Below, one piece after another: positions 618 through 7,138 of a stretch of 64,000 nucleotides of DNA (its first letter is position 1; each line of letters opens with the position of its first letter). The DNA lies in the IMG/VR virus record IMGVR_UViG_3300043772_003377, positions 1 through 64,000 of that record. One strand, 5' to 3'. This DNA comes from a virus. The notes under the pieces are model-generated. The model did not search any database. It had not been told where the DNA came from and saw nothing but the letters and a program-made list of their open reading frames with translations. Both the position numbers and the translations under genes were made by a program.

Positions 618-1052
618 ATGAAACATTCGGTTAATATTGTTAATAAAAAAGTAAAGTTTGAATACGAATTTATCCAAACAGAAATTGCTGGAATTCAATT
701 AATTGGGTCTGAGGTAAAATCTATTAGGGAAAATAAAGCCTCAATTTCAGAGAGTTATTGTTATTTTAGTAATGGTGAATTATTCGTTAAAGGAATGACT
801 ATTTCAGATTATGGGTATGGAACTTTCCACGAAACCAATAGGGATAGAAAATTATTACTCAAGAAAAAAGAATTAAGAAAATTAGAGAATCAATTAATAA
901 AAGGATTAACAATTATTCCGTATAGAATTTTCATTAATGACAGAGGTTTGATTAAAATAGAAATTGTTTTAGGTCGAGGTAAGAAACTTTACGATAAAAG
1001 AGAATCAATTAAAAATCGAGACATTGATCGGGATATGAAAAGAAATATTTAA
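618..1052 (+). CDS. smpB: SsrA-binding protein SmpB
   Basis: Signatures NKK..FEY..I...AGI.L.GSEVKSIR, R.RKLLL.K.E and GKKLYDKRE.IK.RD; tmRNA nearby. Confidence 0.97.
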   Translation: MKHSVNIVNKKVKFEYEFIQTEIAGIQLIGSEVKSIRENKASISESYCYFSNGELFVKGMTISDYGYGTFHETNRDRKLLLKKKELRKLENQLIKGLTIIPYRIFINDRGLIKIEIVLGRGKKLYDKRESIKNRDIDRDMKRNI

Positions 1053-1065
1053 AGTTCAGATAACA

Positions 1066-1088
1066 GACCACCTTCGGGTGGTTTTTTT
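1066..1088 (+). terminator. Rho-independent terminator with cUUCGg tetraloop
   Basis: GACCACC-TTCG-GGTGGTT plus a T-tract after smpB. Confidence 0.85.
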
Positions 1089-1143
1089 ATTCACCTCCAC
1101 ATACTTTTTCCCATCTCCACACTATTTATTTATAAAAGACATT

Positions 1144-1686
1144 ATGAGTAAAAATAAATCAAAACGGAAAATGGGGGAATGTACTTGTGATAATTGCGGA
1201 ATTACATTCAAAAAAACTTTAACTGAGTTATCACGAAGTAAAAAATTAGGTAGAAAAAATTTTTGTAGTAGAACCTGTGTGGGTAAAAATAATATTAAAA
1301 ATTTTGGAGATAAAAAAATCAATTATGATATATCCCAACATTCGGCTAATTCAAGAGACGAATTCACAGGACTAAGAGCTCTTTTACGTAGAATTAAAAA
1401 TAAATATCATAATCACGATGTTGATTTGGATTATCTTAAAGAGGTTTGGGATAATCAAAATAAATGTATATATACTGGCGTCGATTTAGTATTACCTAAA
1501 TGGAAAGGTATAAACAACCCTTTATATACCGCATCAATAGATAGGATAGATTCAACTAAAGGATATGTTAGAGGTAACATACAATACATTTCAATTACAT
1601 CAAATCATGCGAAAAATTCAATGTCTCACGAACAAATGATTGAGTTTTGTGAATTAATTATAAAAAGCAAAAAACCCATCAATTGA
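1144..1686 (+). CDS. HNH-family endonuclease (free-standing homing endonuclease-like) with N-terminal Zn ribbon
   Basis: CDNCG...FCSRTC zinc motif and SIDRIDSTKGYVRGNIQYI...N..K HNH-type motif. Start moved to ATG 1144 because the GTG at 1078 lies inside the terminator. Confidence 0.8.
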   Translation: MSKNKSKRKMGECTCDNCGITFKKTLTELSRSKKLGRKNFCSRTCVGKNNIKNFGDKKINYDISQHSANSRDEFTGLRALLRRIKNKYHNHDVDLDYLKEVWDNQNKCIYTGVDLVLPKWKGINNPLYTASIDRIDSTKGYVRGNIQYISITSNHAKNSMSHEQMIEFCELIIKSKKPIN

Positions 1687-1694
1687 TGGGTTTT
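1671..1694. terminator. Bidirectional terminator between the convergent HNH gene and tmRNA
   Basis: Perfect palindrome AAAACCCATCAATTGATGGGTTTT with A/T tracts on both sides. Confidence 0.7.
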
Positions 1695-1698
1695 GTTT

Positions 1699-4455: not shown

Positions 4456-4457
4456 AA

Positions 4458-4479
4458 AAAGGGGATTTTAATCCCCTTT
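4458..4479. terminator. Bidirectional terminator between the peptidase and clpC
   Basis: AAAGGGGATT-TT-AATCCCCTTT flanked by A and T runs. Confidence 0.7.
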
Positions 4480-6498
4480 CTTTTTTCTCTTCTTTTTCTC
4501 TTTTATCTTGACCTCTTTTTCGTCAACATAAATTTCATATTCTTTATCTTCAGAAATTTCACCTTTCAAAACTTCTTCTGAGATATAATCTTCTACTTTA
4601 TCTTGTAAAGCTCTTTTTAATGGTCTTGCCCCATACAACTCATCAAAACCAACTTCAGAAATTAAATCAACCAATGATTTATCATATGAGAATTTGTATT
4701 TTAAATTAGATAATCTTGATATTAGTTTTTTAACTTCAATATCAACAATCTTACTAATATCCTCTTTATTTAATTGATTAAACACAATTATTTCATCAAT
4801 ACGATTTAAGAATTCAGGAGAGAAAAACTTTTGTAATTCTTTTTTAAGAATGTCTTTTTTCTGTTCTTCTTGAACATATGTTGATGTAGAAGATTTAAAC
4901 CCTACCCCTGTTCCGAAATCCTGTAGTTTTTTAACACCCAAGTTTGATGTCATAATAATCAAACAATTTTTAAAGTTAATTTTTCTACCAAGACTATCTG
5001 TAATATGACCATCATCCAATAATTGTAGTAATACTGAGAAAATATCTTTGTGGGCCTTCTCAACCTCATCGAAAAGAATAACTGAATAAGGTTTATTTTT
5101 AACCATTTCCGTTAATTGTCCACCATCTTCATACCCAACATAAGAAGGAGGTGCTCCGATTAATCTTGTTATGGTGTGTTTTTCTTGATATTCACTCATA
5201 TCAACCCTAATTAAGTTTTCTTCACTACCAAAAATTTCTTTGGCCAGTTGTTTTGCTAAATGAGTTTTACCCACACCTGTTGAACCTAAGAATATAAATG
5301 ACCCGATTGGTTTATTTGGTTCTCTAATACCTAATCTATTTCTTCTGATAGATTTTGCAATTTTTAAAACCGCTTCAGACTGACCAATAACTTTACTATT
5401 AATATTATCTGCCAAACTAATTAAATTTTTTGTCTCATCTGAGTTTAATTTAGTGATGGGTATTTTAGTCATATTTGAAACCACGTCATAAACCAAATCA
5501 TCAGTTACTTCTTTTTTCTGAATCTGTAACTCTGTTTCAAACTTCTTTTTCTCCGCCTCTAATTTATCTAAAATCTTTCTTTCTTTATCTCTTAAAGATG
5601 CTGCCAATTCATAATTTTGTTTTTTAACAACATCCAATTTTTCAAGTTTAACGTCTTGAGCCTCCAATTTTAACTTCTCAATAATTTCAGGTAATTTAAT
5701 ATCTACCTGACTTCTCGCACCAACTTCATCAATAATATCGAACGCCTTATCAGGAAATTCTCTATCTGTAATATATCTTTCCGCCAATTCCACACATAAT
5801 TTTAATATTTCATCAGTATAGTAAACATTATGGTAAGATTCATATTTTTCTTTAGCATTTTGTAAGATTTGTAATGTCTCTTCTTTAGTTGCGGCATCAA
5901 CAATCACTTTTTGGAATCTTCTTTCCAAAGCACCATCTTTTTCAAAATTCTTTCTGTATTCATCAAGAGTAGTTGCACCAACACATTGTATTTCTCCTCT
6001 TGCTAATGCGGGTTTAAATATGTTTGAAGCGTCTAATGAACCTGATGTATTTCCCGCCCCAACAATTGTATGTATCTCATCAATGAAAACTATAATGTTA
6101 GGATTCGCCTGAAGTTCTTCAATAATCACTTTCATCCTTTCTTCAAACTGACCTCTATATTTTGTCCCCGCAACAATTGATGTCATATCTAATGAAACAA
6201 TTTTTTTATCCATTAGGTTTCTAGGACAATCTCCATTTTGGATTTTAATCGCTAACCCTTCAATTATAGCGGTTTTACCACAACCTGGCTCACCAATAAT
6301 AATTGGGTTATTTTTCTTTCTTCTTGATAGGATTTGAGCAATTCTATTAATCTCTCTTTCCCTACCAATAACAGGGTCTAATTTACCTTCTTCCGCTAAT
6401 TTTATTAAATCCCTACTAAAGTTATCTAATACAGGTGTGCTAGAAGTACCTTCACCTTTACCTTTATTCTTACCACTATTTTCCGCAGATTCAATCAT
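4468..6498 (-). CDS. clpC: ClpC-like AAA+ protease ATP-binding subunit lacking the N-terminal Clp-repeat domain
   Basis: Two AAA modules (GEPGCGKT/IVFIDEIH and GSTGVGKT/ILFDEVEKAH), pore loops KYRG and YVGYE, UVR-type M-domain (QNYELAASLRD), VGF ClpP-docking loop, GARPL. The protein starts directly at the LDNFSRDL/LDPVIGR region. Confidence 0.92.
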   Translation of the reverse strand: MIESAENSGKNKGKGEGTSSTPVLDNFSRDLIKLAEEGKLDPVIGREREINRIAQILSRRKKNNPIIIGEPGCGKTAIIEGLAIKIQNGDCPRNLMDKKIVSLDMTSIVAGTKYRGQFEERMKVIIEELQANPNIIVFIDEIHTIVGAGNTSGSLDASNIFKPALARGEIQCVGATTLDEYRKNFEKDGALERRFQKVIVDAATKEETLQILQNAKEKYESYHNVYYTDEILKLCVELAERYITDREFPDKAFDIIDEVGARSQVDIKLPEIIEKLKLEAQDVKLEKLDVVKKQNYELAASLRDKERKILDKLEAEKKKFETELQIQKKEVTDDLVYDVVSNMTKIPITKLNSDETKNLISLADNINSKVIGQSEAVLKIAKSIRRNRLGIREPNKPIGSFIFLGSTGVGKTHLAKQLAKEIFGSEENLIRVDMSEYQEKHTITRLIGAPPSYVGYEDGGQLTEMVKNKPYSVILFDEVEKAHKDIFSVLLQLLDDGHITDSLGRKINFKNCLIIMTSNLGVKKLQDFGTGVGFKSSTSTYVQEEQKKDILKKELQKFFSPEFLNRIDEIIVFNQLNKEDISKIVDIEVKKLISRLSNLKYKFSYDKSLVDLISEVGFDELYGARPLKRALQDKVEDYISEEVLKGEISEDKEYEIYVDEKEVKIKEKKKRKKKGD

Positions 6499-6547
6499 AT
6501 CTTTATTTTTTTATAATTATAGTAATTTATATTTCATTTTCAATATT

Positions 6548-6593
6548 TGATAATATGTCATATTTACAAATTTTATTATGACATTTTGTCATA
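6548..6593. promoter_or_regulatory. Pair of TGACA-N3-TGTCA-type inverted repeats (putative operator/enhancer) in the divergent clpC intergenic region
   Basis: TATGACA-TTT-TGTCATA (6577-6593, perfect) and TGATA-ATA-TGTCA (6548-6560), offset by 31 bp. Confidence 0.55.
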
Positions 6594-6670
6594 TAATTTA
6601 CAATTAAATGTTTTGGCATATATTTAGTAGTGTCGAGCAAAAAAAATAAATAAAATAAAAAAAAACAAAA

Positions 6671-7138
6671 ATGAAAAAATTTAATTACTTAAAAAACTTA
6701 GATGAAATGATGAGAGATTTCTTTACAAACTACACTAGTCAAACTTACCCTTTGAATAATATTATGGGTGAAACTAAAACTGAAAGTGGTGTCGATGAAA
6801 ATGGTGAATGGACTAAAACTACTTATCAAACACCTGACGGAACATACTCTTCTGTTAGTTTTATTAGATTTACCAATGATTCTGAAACTAATGTAGCTTC
6901 AGAATCTAATTTAAAAACGGAATCTAAAAAAACATTAACACTTAAAAAAGAACTTGATTCATTGATCAAGAACCAAGACTTTGAAAAGGCTTGTGAAGTT
7001 AGAGACCAAATTAAAAAACTGGAAACTAATAAATCCGAAATTGAAAAACTTAGAAAAGAACTCGAAGATTCAATTAAGAACGAAAACTTTGAAGATTCAA
7101 TAAAACTTAGAGATAAGATTAAAAAATTGGAAAAATAA
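6671..7138 (+). CDS. Protein with two tandem C-terminal UVR (UvrB/C, McsA-like) coiled-coil motifs; putative ClpC partner
   Basis: LKKELDSLIKNQDFEKACEVRDQIKKLE and LRKELEDSIKNENFEDSIKLRDKIKKLE. Confidence 0.8.
   Translation: MKKFNYLKNLDEMMRDFFTNYTSQTYPLNNIMGETKTESGVDENGEWTKTTYQTPDGTYSSVSFIRFTNDSETNVASESNLKTESKKTLTLKKELDSLIKNQDFEKACEVRDQIKKLETNKSEIEKLRKELEDSIKNENFEDSIKLRDKIKKLEK

Follow-up and report, generated by a model that had tools for sequence, protein, structure and literature searches.

Ribosome-rescue and Clp genes at the edge of a conserved jumbo-phage block: a loosely coupled pair of modules?

A tmRNA, its protein partner SmpB, a peptidase, a truncated ClpC and a protein with two UVR motifs lie together at positions 618-7138 of the viral record IMGVR_UViG_3300043772_003377, which raises the question of whether a phage carries here both a tag for stalled peptides and the machine that reads it. 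The window, that is, the whole stretch of DNA analysed (64,000 nucleotides), makes up the first 64 kb of a phage fragment of 104.5 kb whose parent is a jumbo phage of ~315 kb; CheckV gives the record a completeness of 33%, about one third of the genome. The initial annotation had proposed a self-contained tag-and-degrade circuit, comprising a private tag, the phage's own reader and ClpP borrowed from the host. All five named parts were confirmed and look intact, and the island also holds two genes absent from that annotation, an HNH endonuclease gene and orf486. The island genes do not make up a single operon: they fall into five or more transcription units, set apart by terminator-like hairpins. 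Just downstream come the genes for the large terminase, the portal and the major head protein, and the stretch forms the border of a conserved jumbo-phage block, holding two intact modules of a phage proteostasis island. The circuit idea is partly supported: its parts are real, but the relatives show two co-located modules.

The smpB gene (618-1052, plus strand) encodes a 144-aa protein matching Pfam PF01668 over its full length (159.5 bits, profile positions 2-140 of 143), with a terminator-like hairpin at 1065-1084 on its 3′ side. Its nearest GenBank phage matches, at 45-52% identity, come from huge phages of 634-735 kb and from Lak phages. That huge phages can carry tmRNA and SmpB agrees with the portions of Al-Shayeb et al. 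(2020, PMC7162821) considered here, which report both along with other translation genes and in which the tmRNA survey relied on ARAGORN. Among four complete genomes of the clade, smpB is missing from two and unlinked in one. The homing-type HNH gene (1144-1686, plus strand), inserted between smpB and ssrA, matches PHROG endonuclease/HNH families (2e-17 to 5e-9); it is missing from a 99% identical relative (L082), and homologues sit 20-31 nt off the tmRNA 3′ end in four other loci (L011, L050, L060, L095). It is a mobile passenger outside the rescue pathway.

The tmRNA gene ssrA (1699-2084, minus strand, 386 nt) scores 61.5 bits against Rfam RF00023 (gathering score 47, E 1e-23, model positions 1-374), shows a G3-U wobble in the acceptor stem and a fold energy z-score of -2.95, and is immediately followed on its 3′ side by a terminator-like hairpin (1694-1671). 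It was missed by ARAGORN in the window and by Rfam run over the entire window in gathering mode with default filters; across the clade ARAGORN yielded 15 tmRNAs in 95 loci against 84 in 111 for the profile search, and thus misses most of them. The tag reading frame (1928-1990, minus strand) begins at the resume codon GGC and runs for 21 codons, GNVLDKMATIGLIRENAEVVA, followed by TAA TAG at 1927-1922. ARAGORN calls the identical frame and tag family in relatives, and the frame was recovered from 81 loci. The tags of the clade, 21-22 aa long, are distinctive, and it is the peptide that is conserved: G1, K6, G11, L12 and A21 are invariant among 47 distinct 21-codon tags, G11, L12 and A21 being written with three to four different codons each despite their invariance, and pN/pS is about 0.5. 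The C-terminus reads V-x-(V)-A, not LAA, and an inner motif, K-M-x-x-[LI]-G-L-x-R, is conserved.

The T-arm of this tmRNA is atypical and palindromic, with a 6-nt loop (TTCGAA), and folds as a plain hairpin. This arm and the missing LAA end would suit a long tag that is not a degradation signal and marks or relocates rescued peptides, for example as an amphipathic helix for sequestration, or else an allele impaired in its T-arm. We hold either to be highly improbable, as the end of the tag is still degron-like, with small hydrophobic residues and Ala, the non-canonical T-arm also persists in diverged lineages with the tag frame intact, and the Rfam score is well over the cut-off.

The ClpC gene (4468-6498, minus strand) encodes 676 aa comprising D1, a UVR-type middle domain, D2 and D2-small (Pfam AAA, AAA_lid_9, AAA_2 and ClpB_D2-small). 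Because the match to Staphylococcus aureus ClpC (718 bits) begins only at residue 146 of the latter, the phage protein is without the N-domain, and Pfam Clp_N was found neither in it nor elsewhere in the 104.5-kb contig. Walker A/B motifs and pore loops are intact, the middle-domain tip reads QNYELAASLRD, and the VGF of D2 aligns with the AGF ClpP loop. The 89 ClpCs of the clade (669-687 aa) have Y or F at the middle-domain tip and all carry [VIM]GF in the ClpP loop, which bears out the annotated truncated ClpC with an intact docking loop; so strict a conservation argues for proteolysis and not pure chaperoning. This natural ClpC lineage is widespread, with more than 590 IMG/VR stretches matched by each of two queries.

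A putative divergent control region (6499-6670), with ATGACAT-type palindromes and its best promoter-like hexamers facing both directions, lies between ClpC and the gene of the double-UVR protein (6671-7138, plus strand). The 155-aa product consists of an N-terminal region and two UVR motifs, QDFEKACEVRD and ENFEDSIKLRD (Pfam UVR, 53 bits in two stretches), and among PDB entries it is most similar to the UVR motif at the C-terminus of McsA, which activates the arginine kinase McsB (8wtb_B, E 6e-4); ClpC middle domains rank next. McsA itself was rejected, since the zinc-finger cysteines are absent (one Cys in 155 aa) and the UVR motifs are in tandem; the protein is also optional in the clade, and no McsB was seen. 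It adjoins ClpC in 36 of 86 loci and is absent from the other 50, where the slot holds Hsp20 (in many relatives), another small protein or nothing. This choice of occupants points to a role in protein quality control. An optional UVR protein and an SmpB so often missing or unlinked do not support a self-contained set as first described.

Between ssrA and ClpC lie two plus-strand genes. The first, orf486 (2179-3639), encodes a conserved, fast-evolving protein of 486 aa with no match in Pfam or PHROG, and neither PDB nor BFVD offered a convincing structural match to its AF2 model (pLDDT 83). Homologues occupy the same slot in about 65 loci at 22-31% identity; the only invariant positions are G215 and the C-terminal L472-F473, the latter within an invariant (Q/Y)PELF tail. 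The second (3643-4455) encodes an MH-clan di-zinc exopeptidase of 270 aa, PepT/TET-like and reduced to the catalytic domain, that is, without the lid/dimerisation domain of the tripeptidase PepT (M20B) and the PDZ-like domain of TET. It matches phrog_4191 (3e-41), and Foldseek places its AF2 model (pLDDT 92.2) closest to PepT (3gb0, E 4e-13, TM 0.76) and the TET/M42 aminopeptidases (1e-11 to 1e-9), with which it shares His/Asp/Glu metal-site positions; at least 97% of 70 homologues retain H65, D67, D108, D109, E134, E135, D159, D207 and H230. The peptidase first annotated as M20/M28 is real; its scores against Pfam M20, M42 and M28 are all below cut-offs. The peptidase and ClpC genes are convergent, and a terminator-like hairpin of 9 pairs between them (4458-4479) is probably common to both.

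More than 80 related contigs or loci share the order tmRNA-orf486-peptidase-ClpC, and the longer block tmRNA-orf486-peptidase-ClpC-KTSC-M23 is conserved in more than 80 IMG/VR loci with ClpC identities of 70-79%; past the tmRNA the DNA is mosaic, and even the commonest gene family there is found in no more than 20 of 55 loci. KTSC, the M23 lysin, orf483 and orf138 are equally syntenic in the clade, and gene order kept within one collinear clade may be plain inheritance. Outside the clade, 80 loci from more distantly related phages with ClpC show neither tmRNA nor SmpB within 10 kb; where genomes of these lineages are complete, the tmRNA is either absent or separated from ClpC by 80 kb or more, and in 8 of 12 wider ClpC-bearing genomes no tmRNA scores above the Rfam cut-off. 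The linkage assumed at the outset therefore holds inside the clade only.

Beside the head and packaging genes, ClpC is linked to KTSC, the M23 lysin and orf138, a linkage of greater age and spread than the one between ClpC and tmRNA, as would be expected if the two sets were unrelated neighbours. ClpC with Hsp20 or the UVR protein would then be a general chaperone, disaggregase or host-takeover protease serving virion assembly or host-protein removal, and tmRNA-SmpB would merely free ribosomes, leaving the tagged peptides to host proteases. The frequent Hsp20 in place of the UVR protein fits, as do the many ClpC-bearing phages with undetected tmRNA, the Lak phages and the phage G005, which lack ClpC and still have tmRNA, SmpB and ClpP, and the assembly role proposed for jumbo-phage AAA+ chaperones in the portions of PMC7824862 considered here. 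We nevertheless rate this explanation as rather unlikely: besides the strictly conserved docking loop, the exopeptidase is always beside ClpC within the clade, and trans-translation and Clp genes adjoin in four different arrangements across lineages, namely that of this clade, DnaJ-metallopeptidase-like-ClpP-tmRNA in G014, ClpP-one gene-SmpB in G013, and, in a group of huge phages, SmpB with a short ClpP-like gene about 2 kb away. A rough random-placement test of such juxtaposition gave a combined p of about 0.002, with lineages picked after looking and uniform placement assumed.

No ClpP was found in the 104.5-kb contig, about one third of the genome. It is encoded by three of the four complete clade genomes and nine of the 12 wider ClpC-bearing genomes; therefore host ClpP need not be borrowed, contrary to the initial annotation. 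ClpX was found in none of nine related complete genomes.

The same absence of ClpX would favour a closed private circuit, in which the tag is poorly read by host proteases and the N-domain-less ClpC is its dedicated reader, the UVR protein or orf486 acts as adaptor for the inner tag motif, ClpC feeds ClpP, and the exopeptidase recycles amino acids. The long tag, with its V-x-(V)-A end and its conserved inner motif and C-terminus, has a layout like the SspB and ClpX determinants of the Escherichia coli tag; the tmRNA stays within about 2-5 kb of ClpC at most across the clade, despite insertions and one inversion of the peptidase; and the invariant tail of the otherwise fast-evolving orf486 protein is of the kind seen in docking tails. 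A sister lineage, G011, has ClpC and a tag of the same family ending in AEVVA, but its tmRNA lies 81 kb from ClpC. The tag family found in G012 and G013, which have ClpC, also occurs in G005, which does not, and tag families across phages show no tracking with ClpC presence. Together with the ClpC-bearing genomes that lack a detectable tmRNA, the UVR protein absent from most loci and the erratic SmpB, this leaves a private tag with its own reader unlikely.

Among known systems, bacterial trans-translation (tmRNA-SmpB with ClpXP/ClpAP and SspB) shares with the phage set SmpB, a one-piece tmRNA with G-U at acceptor position 3, an in-frame Ala-ending tag with conserved inner and C-terminal parts, and a Clp ATPase with a ClpP loop nearby. 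The phage version differs in being phage-encoded and in a tag of 21-22 residues that does not end in ALAA; ClpX was not found in the nine related complete genomes, the N-domain-less ClpC is the sole Clp ATPase of the phage, and nothing resembling SspB was recognised. Jumbo phages are described as carrying ClpP, ClpS, ClpA or ClpX in the portions of Iyer et al. (2021, PMC7824862) considered here, and in those portions and the ones of PMC7162821 we found no description of an N-domain-less ClpC or its UVR/Hsp20 partners, of families of long, conserved tags, or of rescue and Clp genes as neighbours. A close counterpart of the phage ClpC is an engineered one: S. aureus ClpC deleted for the N-domain has the same architecture (from about residue 146, with middle domain and ClpP loop). 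In that work the pore of ClpC, not its N-domain, reads ssrA degrons, the deleted protein has raised basal ATPase activity and is inactive alone, and its F436A version, in which middle-domain contacts are broken, degrades GFP-SsrA efficiently and casein poorly (Jenne et al., EMBO J 2025, PMC12583610). The last result also suits a dedicated reader. The phage protein is natural, and because the tip of its middle domain is still aromatic (Tyr), it may by analogy depend on an activator as well.

Our leading explanation, put forward tentatively, is that the island is a loosely coupled pair of rescue and Clp modules, tagged products being one substrate class. In the first module, SmpB and tmRNA would act on stalled ribosomes, extending the peptides there by the 21-residue tag specific to the clade. 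The second, made up of ClpC, an optional small partner and the exopeptidase, would unfold and degrade proteins; its ClpC naturally lacks the adaptor-binding N-domain and retains the two ATPase rings, a coiled-coil middle domain and the loop for docking on ClpP. We infer that ClpC docks on ClpP, self-encoded in most complete relatives and host-derived in others, and that its pore reads tagged products. Where present, the UVR protein, whose motifs resemble the ClpC middle-domain tip, would tune ClpC through UVR-to-UVR contacts. TET peptidases finish off oligopeptides from chambered proteases, and the phage exopeptidase may likewise trim released oligopeptides to amino acids. The absence of a phage ClpX, the four arrangements and the pore-read ssrA tags of N-domain-less ClpC speak in favour; counted against it are the separate transcription units, the T-arm of this tmRNA allele, the inactivity of the S. 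aureus deletion protein alone, and the relatives' ClpPs, in which the positions we take to form the docking pocket, from alignment with E. coli residues, are partly changed. ClpC appears to predate its linkage to tmRNA and to function without a phage tmRNA in sister lineages; the modules would thus be separable, and what these phages may carry is an island of loosely coupled parts rather than a closed private circuit.

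The initial annotation had suggested a possible self-contained phage circuit of SmpB, tmRNA, a peptidase, a truncated ClpC and a UVR partner that tags peptides and degrades them with host ClpP, and all five of these parts at positions 618-7138 proved to be real: Pfam recovers SmpB and Rfam the tmRNA, alongside a peptidase of PepT/TET fold, the ClpC and a protein with two UVR motifs. The smpB gene (618-1052, plus strand) encodes a full-length protein (PF01668, 159.5 bits against a cut-off of 27, profile positions 2-140 of 143) and is followed by an HNH endonuclease gene (1144-1686, plus), the tmRNA gene (1699-2084, minus), the conserved orf486 of 486 codons (2179-3639, plus), the zinc exopeptidase gene (3643-4455, plus), the ClpC gene (4468-6498, minus) and the gene of the two-UVR protein (6671-7138, plus). 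Terminator-like hairpins separate smpB, the HNH and tmRNA pair, and the peptidase and ClpC pair, so the locus holds several transcription units and is not an operon. The window covers the first 64 kb of the IMG/VR record, which is 104,513 bp long; at a CheckV completeness of 33% the whole genome would measure roughly 315 kb. The DNA has a G+C content of about 29%, and genes for the large terminase, the portal and the major head protein follow closely downstream of the locus. In tblastn against GenBank phages, a 547-aa ORF at 12544-14187, at first read as the large terminase, found no counterpart. The host may belong to the Bacteroidota, a suggestion drawn only from the similarity of SmpB to that of Lak and huge phages and from the Gly resume codon of the tmRNA, and ClpC could not be used to name a host or donor, its best bacterial matches being 44-52% identical and spread across many phyla.

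The tmRNA matches the whole of the Rfam model (RF00023, positions 1-374 of 374) and scores 61.5 bits where the gathering score is 47, and it is easily overlooked: ARAGORN reported no tmRNA in the window, and Rfam cmscan in gathering mode missed it when the whole window was searched. Relaxed filters, or a search of less sequence, recovered it with a margin of 14 bits over the gathering score. ARAGORN called a tmRNA in 15 of 95 related loci and a profile search in 84 of 111, and phage tmRNAs have probably been undercounted in surveys. The acceptor stem is tRNA-Ala-like, pairing 5′ GGGGGUA with UACCUCC ahead of ACCA, and its third pair is G-U (G3-U70). The tag frame runs for 21 codons from GGC, which aligns with the Rfam resume codon, to TAA and encodes GNVLDKMATIGLIRENAEVVA; in relatives, ARAGORN picks this frame as well. 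Across the clade, by which we mean the jumbo-phage relatives that keep the order tmRNA-orf486-peptidase-ClpC, the tmRNAs carry 43 distinct versions of a single tag of 21-22 residues. G1, K6, G11, L12 and A21 are invariant across 47 distinct 21-codon tag sequences, although G11, L12 and A21 are each written with three or four codons, and the tag has a pN/pS of about 0.5; invariant residues under varied codons, together with this ratio, indicate that the tag is selected as a peptide. The T-arm of the window's tmRNA, GCGAU-UUCGAA-AUCGC, has a 6-nt loop instead of the canonical 5-bp stem with a 7-nt loop, and it is gapped at this T-loop when aligned to the Rfam model. We regard it as highly improbable that the tag is no degron or that the tmRNA allele of the window is impaired. 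A literature search on phage tmRNA tags returned nothing useful.

The same T-arm variant was seen next to HNH genes elsewhere. In the window 12 nt separate the end of the HNH gene from the tmRNA 3′ end, and a 99%-identical relative lacks the gene; in four other IMG/VR loci (L011, L050, L060 and L095) a close homologue of it lies 20-31 nt from the tmRNA. All five of these HNH-adjacent tmRNAs share a palindromic T-arm with the 6-nt loop TTCGAA, while among alleles without a detected HNH homologue 57 have the usual 7-nt loop and two a 6-nt loop. From this co-occurrence the HNH protein looks like a homing endonuclease, for which the tmRNA T-arm may be the target or the immunity site.

ClpC, a class I Hsp100 of the type that partners ClpP, had been annotated as truncated with an intact VGF loop for ClpP docking, and this description stands. 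It aligns with ClpC of Staphylococcus aureus and Bacillus subtilis at 700-718 bits, the match beginning at their residue 146-148, so that a low-complexity head of 20 residues takes the place of the N-domain. The missing Clp_N repeat domain is the one that binds adaptors and phospho-arginine; Pfam finds no Clp_N match in the protein, nor a Clp_N domain or a separate Clp_N gene anywhere in the contig. Both AAA+ modules are present (Pfam AAA, AAA_lid_9, AAA_2 and D2-small), with readable Walker A/B and pore-loop motifs (GEPGCGKTA, FIDEIH, KYRG, GSTGVGKTH, LFDEVEKA and SYVGY). The coiled-coil middle domain aligns column for column with that of S. aureus ClpC (QNYELAASLRD against QEFENAANLRD), its Pfam UVR score of 19.1 bits falling just below the cut-off of 21.5, and the docking loop of (L/I/V)-G-(F/L) type, GTGVGFKSS, stands opposite S. 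aureus FAGFGGSS. In the clade the [VIM]GF loop is kept in 89 of 89 ClpCs, all of which are 669-687 aa long and carry Tyr or Phe at the middle-domain tip. In S. aureus it is the pore of ClpC, not its N-domain, that reads the ssrA degron, and ClpC without its N-domain has raised ATPase activity and is inactive in proteolysis (PMC12583610). When the middle-domain tip of this truncated protein is mutated as well (F436A), GFP-SsrA is degraded as well as by the MecA-activated wild type and casein only poorly (PMC12583610). The head-less phage ClpC is a natural mirror of an engineered mutant with a preference for ssrA substrates, and it retains an aromatic tip.

This retained tip makes it plausible that the neighbouring protein, with two tip-like UVR motifs, acts as a switch by competing for middle-domain contacts of ClpC. 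Among solved structures it matches the UVR motif of McsA best and ClpC middle domains next. McsA combines N-terminal zinc fingers with a C-terminal UVR motif and is paired with McsB, whereas the phage protein matches the UVR motif alone and, having one Cys in 155 aa and none of the McsA zinc fingers, is not a McsA; Pfam and PHROG showed no McsB-like gene in the neighbourhood of the locus. Not every clade member carries the UVR protein, whose presence is independent of the tip residue. Of 86 loci, 36 have it in the slot between ClpC and KTSC; in the remainder this slot is empty or taken by a small heat-shock protein of the Hsp20 type (Pfam 1e-13 to 1e-15), by a family-less protein of 110-113 aa bearing a PPYYP motif, or by other genes; examples from related loci are L022:9367-9762, L034:9490-9837, L017:6462-6842 and L002:9554-9895. 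Two further ideas about the slot were discarded: covariation of the middle-domain tip with the slot neighbour (UVR, Hsp20 or other), since the tip is Tyr or Phe everywhere, and derivation of the UVR-protein N-terminus from the N-terminal arm of Hsp20, for which hhalign was too weak (P 0.0066, probability 5.8%, 41 in-register columns). The divergent control region between the ClpC and UVR genes (6499-6670) contains the palindromes ATATGTCATAT and TATGACA-TTT-TGTCATA, possibly an operator.

The peptidase had been assigned to M20/M28. Its catalytic domain has the fold of the MH-clan metallopeptidases, and the Pfam scores stay below the cut-offs for M20 (22.8 against 24.6 bits) and M28 (16.9 against 21.3), as they do for M42 (21.0 against 23.2). 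Its model (pLDDT 92) is a single alpha/beta domain, for which Foldseek returned PepT (E 4e-13, TM 0.76), TET/M42 aminopeptidases (E 1e-11 to 1e-9) and the DapE catalytic domain (about 1e-10). H65, D67, D108/D109, E134-E135, D159/D207 and H230 are conserved among 70 homologues and, by analogy with these enzymes, would be the residues of a co-catalytic metal site. With 270 aa the protein is a catalytic domain only, having no second (lid, dimerisation or PDZ-like) domain and covering the catalytic part alone of Foldseek targets of 330-410 aa. The upstream orf486 gave no match in Pfam or PHROG and no usable one in the ESM Atlas; its AF2 model (pLDDT 83) matched nothing in the PDB at E ≤0.001 by Foldseek, only helical-bundle noise by VIA-align (Z ≤5.6), and only uncharacterised proteins with low TM-scores in BFVD. 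It evolves fast, at 22-31% identity against 70-79% for ClpC, with G215 and the C-terminal Leu-Phe as its only invariant residues, and it ends in a constant (Q/Y)PELF tail that could be a docking motif.

A ClpC search of IMG/VR matched at least 593 stretches, of which the best 80 (70-99% identity) were taken to survey the relatives, with 14 further loci added from a SmpB search. The order tmRNA-orf486-peptidase-ClpC-(small gene)-KTSC-M23 lysin-orf483-orf138, the last two being further syntenic ORFs, is held almost everywhere in the clade, and the clade tmRNA profile finds a tmRNA in nearly all loci that extend far enough. On the far side of the tmRNA the genes form a mosaic, and only 13 of 55 loci have SmpB on that side. 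Among the four complete clade genomes (304-322 kb), tmRNA lies beside ClpC in all four; SmpB is encoded in two and adjoins the tmRNA in one. In the window, the gene after KTSC (7454-9688) encodes a 744-aa protein with an N-terminal region of unknown function (phrog_36119), the rest consisting of M23 peptidase, peptidoglycan-binding and GH19-like domains.

The remark that no ClpP was seen holds for the whole 104,513-bp contig, and none was found in the contigs of the closest relatives, one of which extends about 41 kb past smpB. Borrowing of host ClpP, which had been proposed from this, is nevertheless doubtful: most complete relatives encode ClpP (three of the four complete clade genomes, at least 22 kb from ClpC). 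It is possible for the window's phage, two-thirds of whose genome is unseen, and for the relative genome G001, which has no ClpP of its own. Four phage ClpPs compared (L096:1366-2043, L099:1369-2103, L302:4754-5437 and L303:3914-4579) keep the catalytic Ser/His/Asp triad and are extended at the N-terminus by about 30 aa. At positions of the putative docking pocket they show T-M-H or N-L-Y against bacterial Y-L-Y and KRS against bacterial KRF.

Outside the clade the linkage of ClpC and tmRNA does not extend to the sister lineages, which are more distant ClpC-bearing phages in which the two are unlinked or tmRNA is absent. Two huge phages of 634 and 642 kb have ClpCs 56-58% identical to the window's (that of LR745206 lacks an N-domain in a Pfam scan), SmpB 73-90 kb away from ClpC, and no tmRNA seen above the Rfam cut-off. 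Among the matches listed with the huge-phage ClpC, 80 further loci, with ClpCs 51-67% identical to the window's, show neither tmRNA nor SmpB within 10 kb of ClpC; within the same distance peptidase occurs in three and ClpP in one. KTSC is found in about 30 of these loci, 20 of them also with the M23 lysin and 17 with orf138, and the presence of KTSC and M23 beside ClpC where tmRNA is missing indicates that the ClpC-KTSC-M23 linkage is older than that of ClpC and tmRNA. In 12 near-complete sister genomes, tmRNA above the Rfam cut-off is found in four, always at least 80 kb from ClpC, SmpB in ten and ClpP in nine; ClpX was detected in none of nine genomes tested (four of the sister set, the four complete clade genomes and G005). 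The tag of sister genome G011, as read, is GDIFADATVGHFVTEGAEVVA, of the same family as the window tag. A 25-residue tag family is common to the ClpC-bearing G012 and G013 and to G005, a complete 319-kb phage with SmpB, ClpP and tmRNA and no ClpC, and Lak phages, which have no ClpC, carry a short tag ending in RMAA; thus the tag family does not track ClpC. A private tag co-inherited with a dedicated reader, as the circuit had implied, is not borne out, since the linkage is confined to the clade and the tag family is independent of ClpC presence. The constant neighbourhood of tmRNA and ClpC within the clade speaks for a closed private circuit, but writer and reader are not co-inherited across lineages, and we consider such a circuit unlikely.

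The opposite possibility, that rescue and degradation genes are unrelated neighbours, has to be set beside the repeated closeness of rescue and Clp genes. In G014, a 362-kb sister-lineage phage (L303 corresponds to G014:77500-86000), DnaJ, a small metallopeptidase-like gene, ClpP and tmRNA stand in a row on one strand, with 64 nt between ClpP and tmRNA. G013 has a single gene between ClpP and SmpB, the two are about 10 kb apart in G012 and G005, and the huge-phage group has a short ClpP-like gene about 2 kb from SmpB. For six lineage representatives, a rough test against random placement gave a combined p of about 0.002, with lineages picked after looking and auxiliary genes that are not uniformly placed. 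This juxtaposition is suggestive only of a functional tie, and mere neighbourhood seems to us rather unlikely, if somewhat easier to credit than a closed circuit.

The observation behind the initial annotation is therefore confirmed and its circuit interpretation partly supported. The reading that we tentatively prefer, at a little under even chances, is a phage proteostasis island of two separable modules, one of which would serve ribosome rescue and the other ClpC-ClpP-exopeptidase degradation. The two probably contribute to one broad task, in which tagged peptides are likely to be one class of substrate. A more ambitious version, which we hold to be doubtful, would give this jumbo-phage lineage its own degradation code: the tmRNA would add a two-part 21-residue degron whose C-terminus is read through the pore of the N-domain-less ClpC, helped by a phage-only factor (orf486 by way of its invariant PELF tail, or the double-UVR protein by mimicking the middle domain) that would bind the conserved inner motif or switch ClpC on, after which ClpP and the minimal exopeptidase would release amino acids for the phage from the products of failed translation, beyond host regulation. 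Phage tmRNA and SmpB (PMC7162821) and jumbo-phage Clp genes (PMC7824862) are known. We found no published description of a natural N-domain-less ClpC lineage, of its alternating UVR/Hsp20 partners, of the long conserved tags, or of rescue genes recurring next to Clp genes.

The clade offers a compact and testable case, with a natural head-less ClpC, interchangeable small partners and long tags conserved as peptides. If the tag is not read by ClpC, the locus still shows jumbo phages repeatedly assembling proteostasis islands, and the undercounting of phage tmRNAs in ARAGORN-based surveys would still stand. If it is read by the phage ClpC, these phages would own a full route of quality control and amino-acid recycling, and the UVR protein would represent a novel type of ClpC regulator that works through mimicry of the middle domain.
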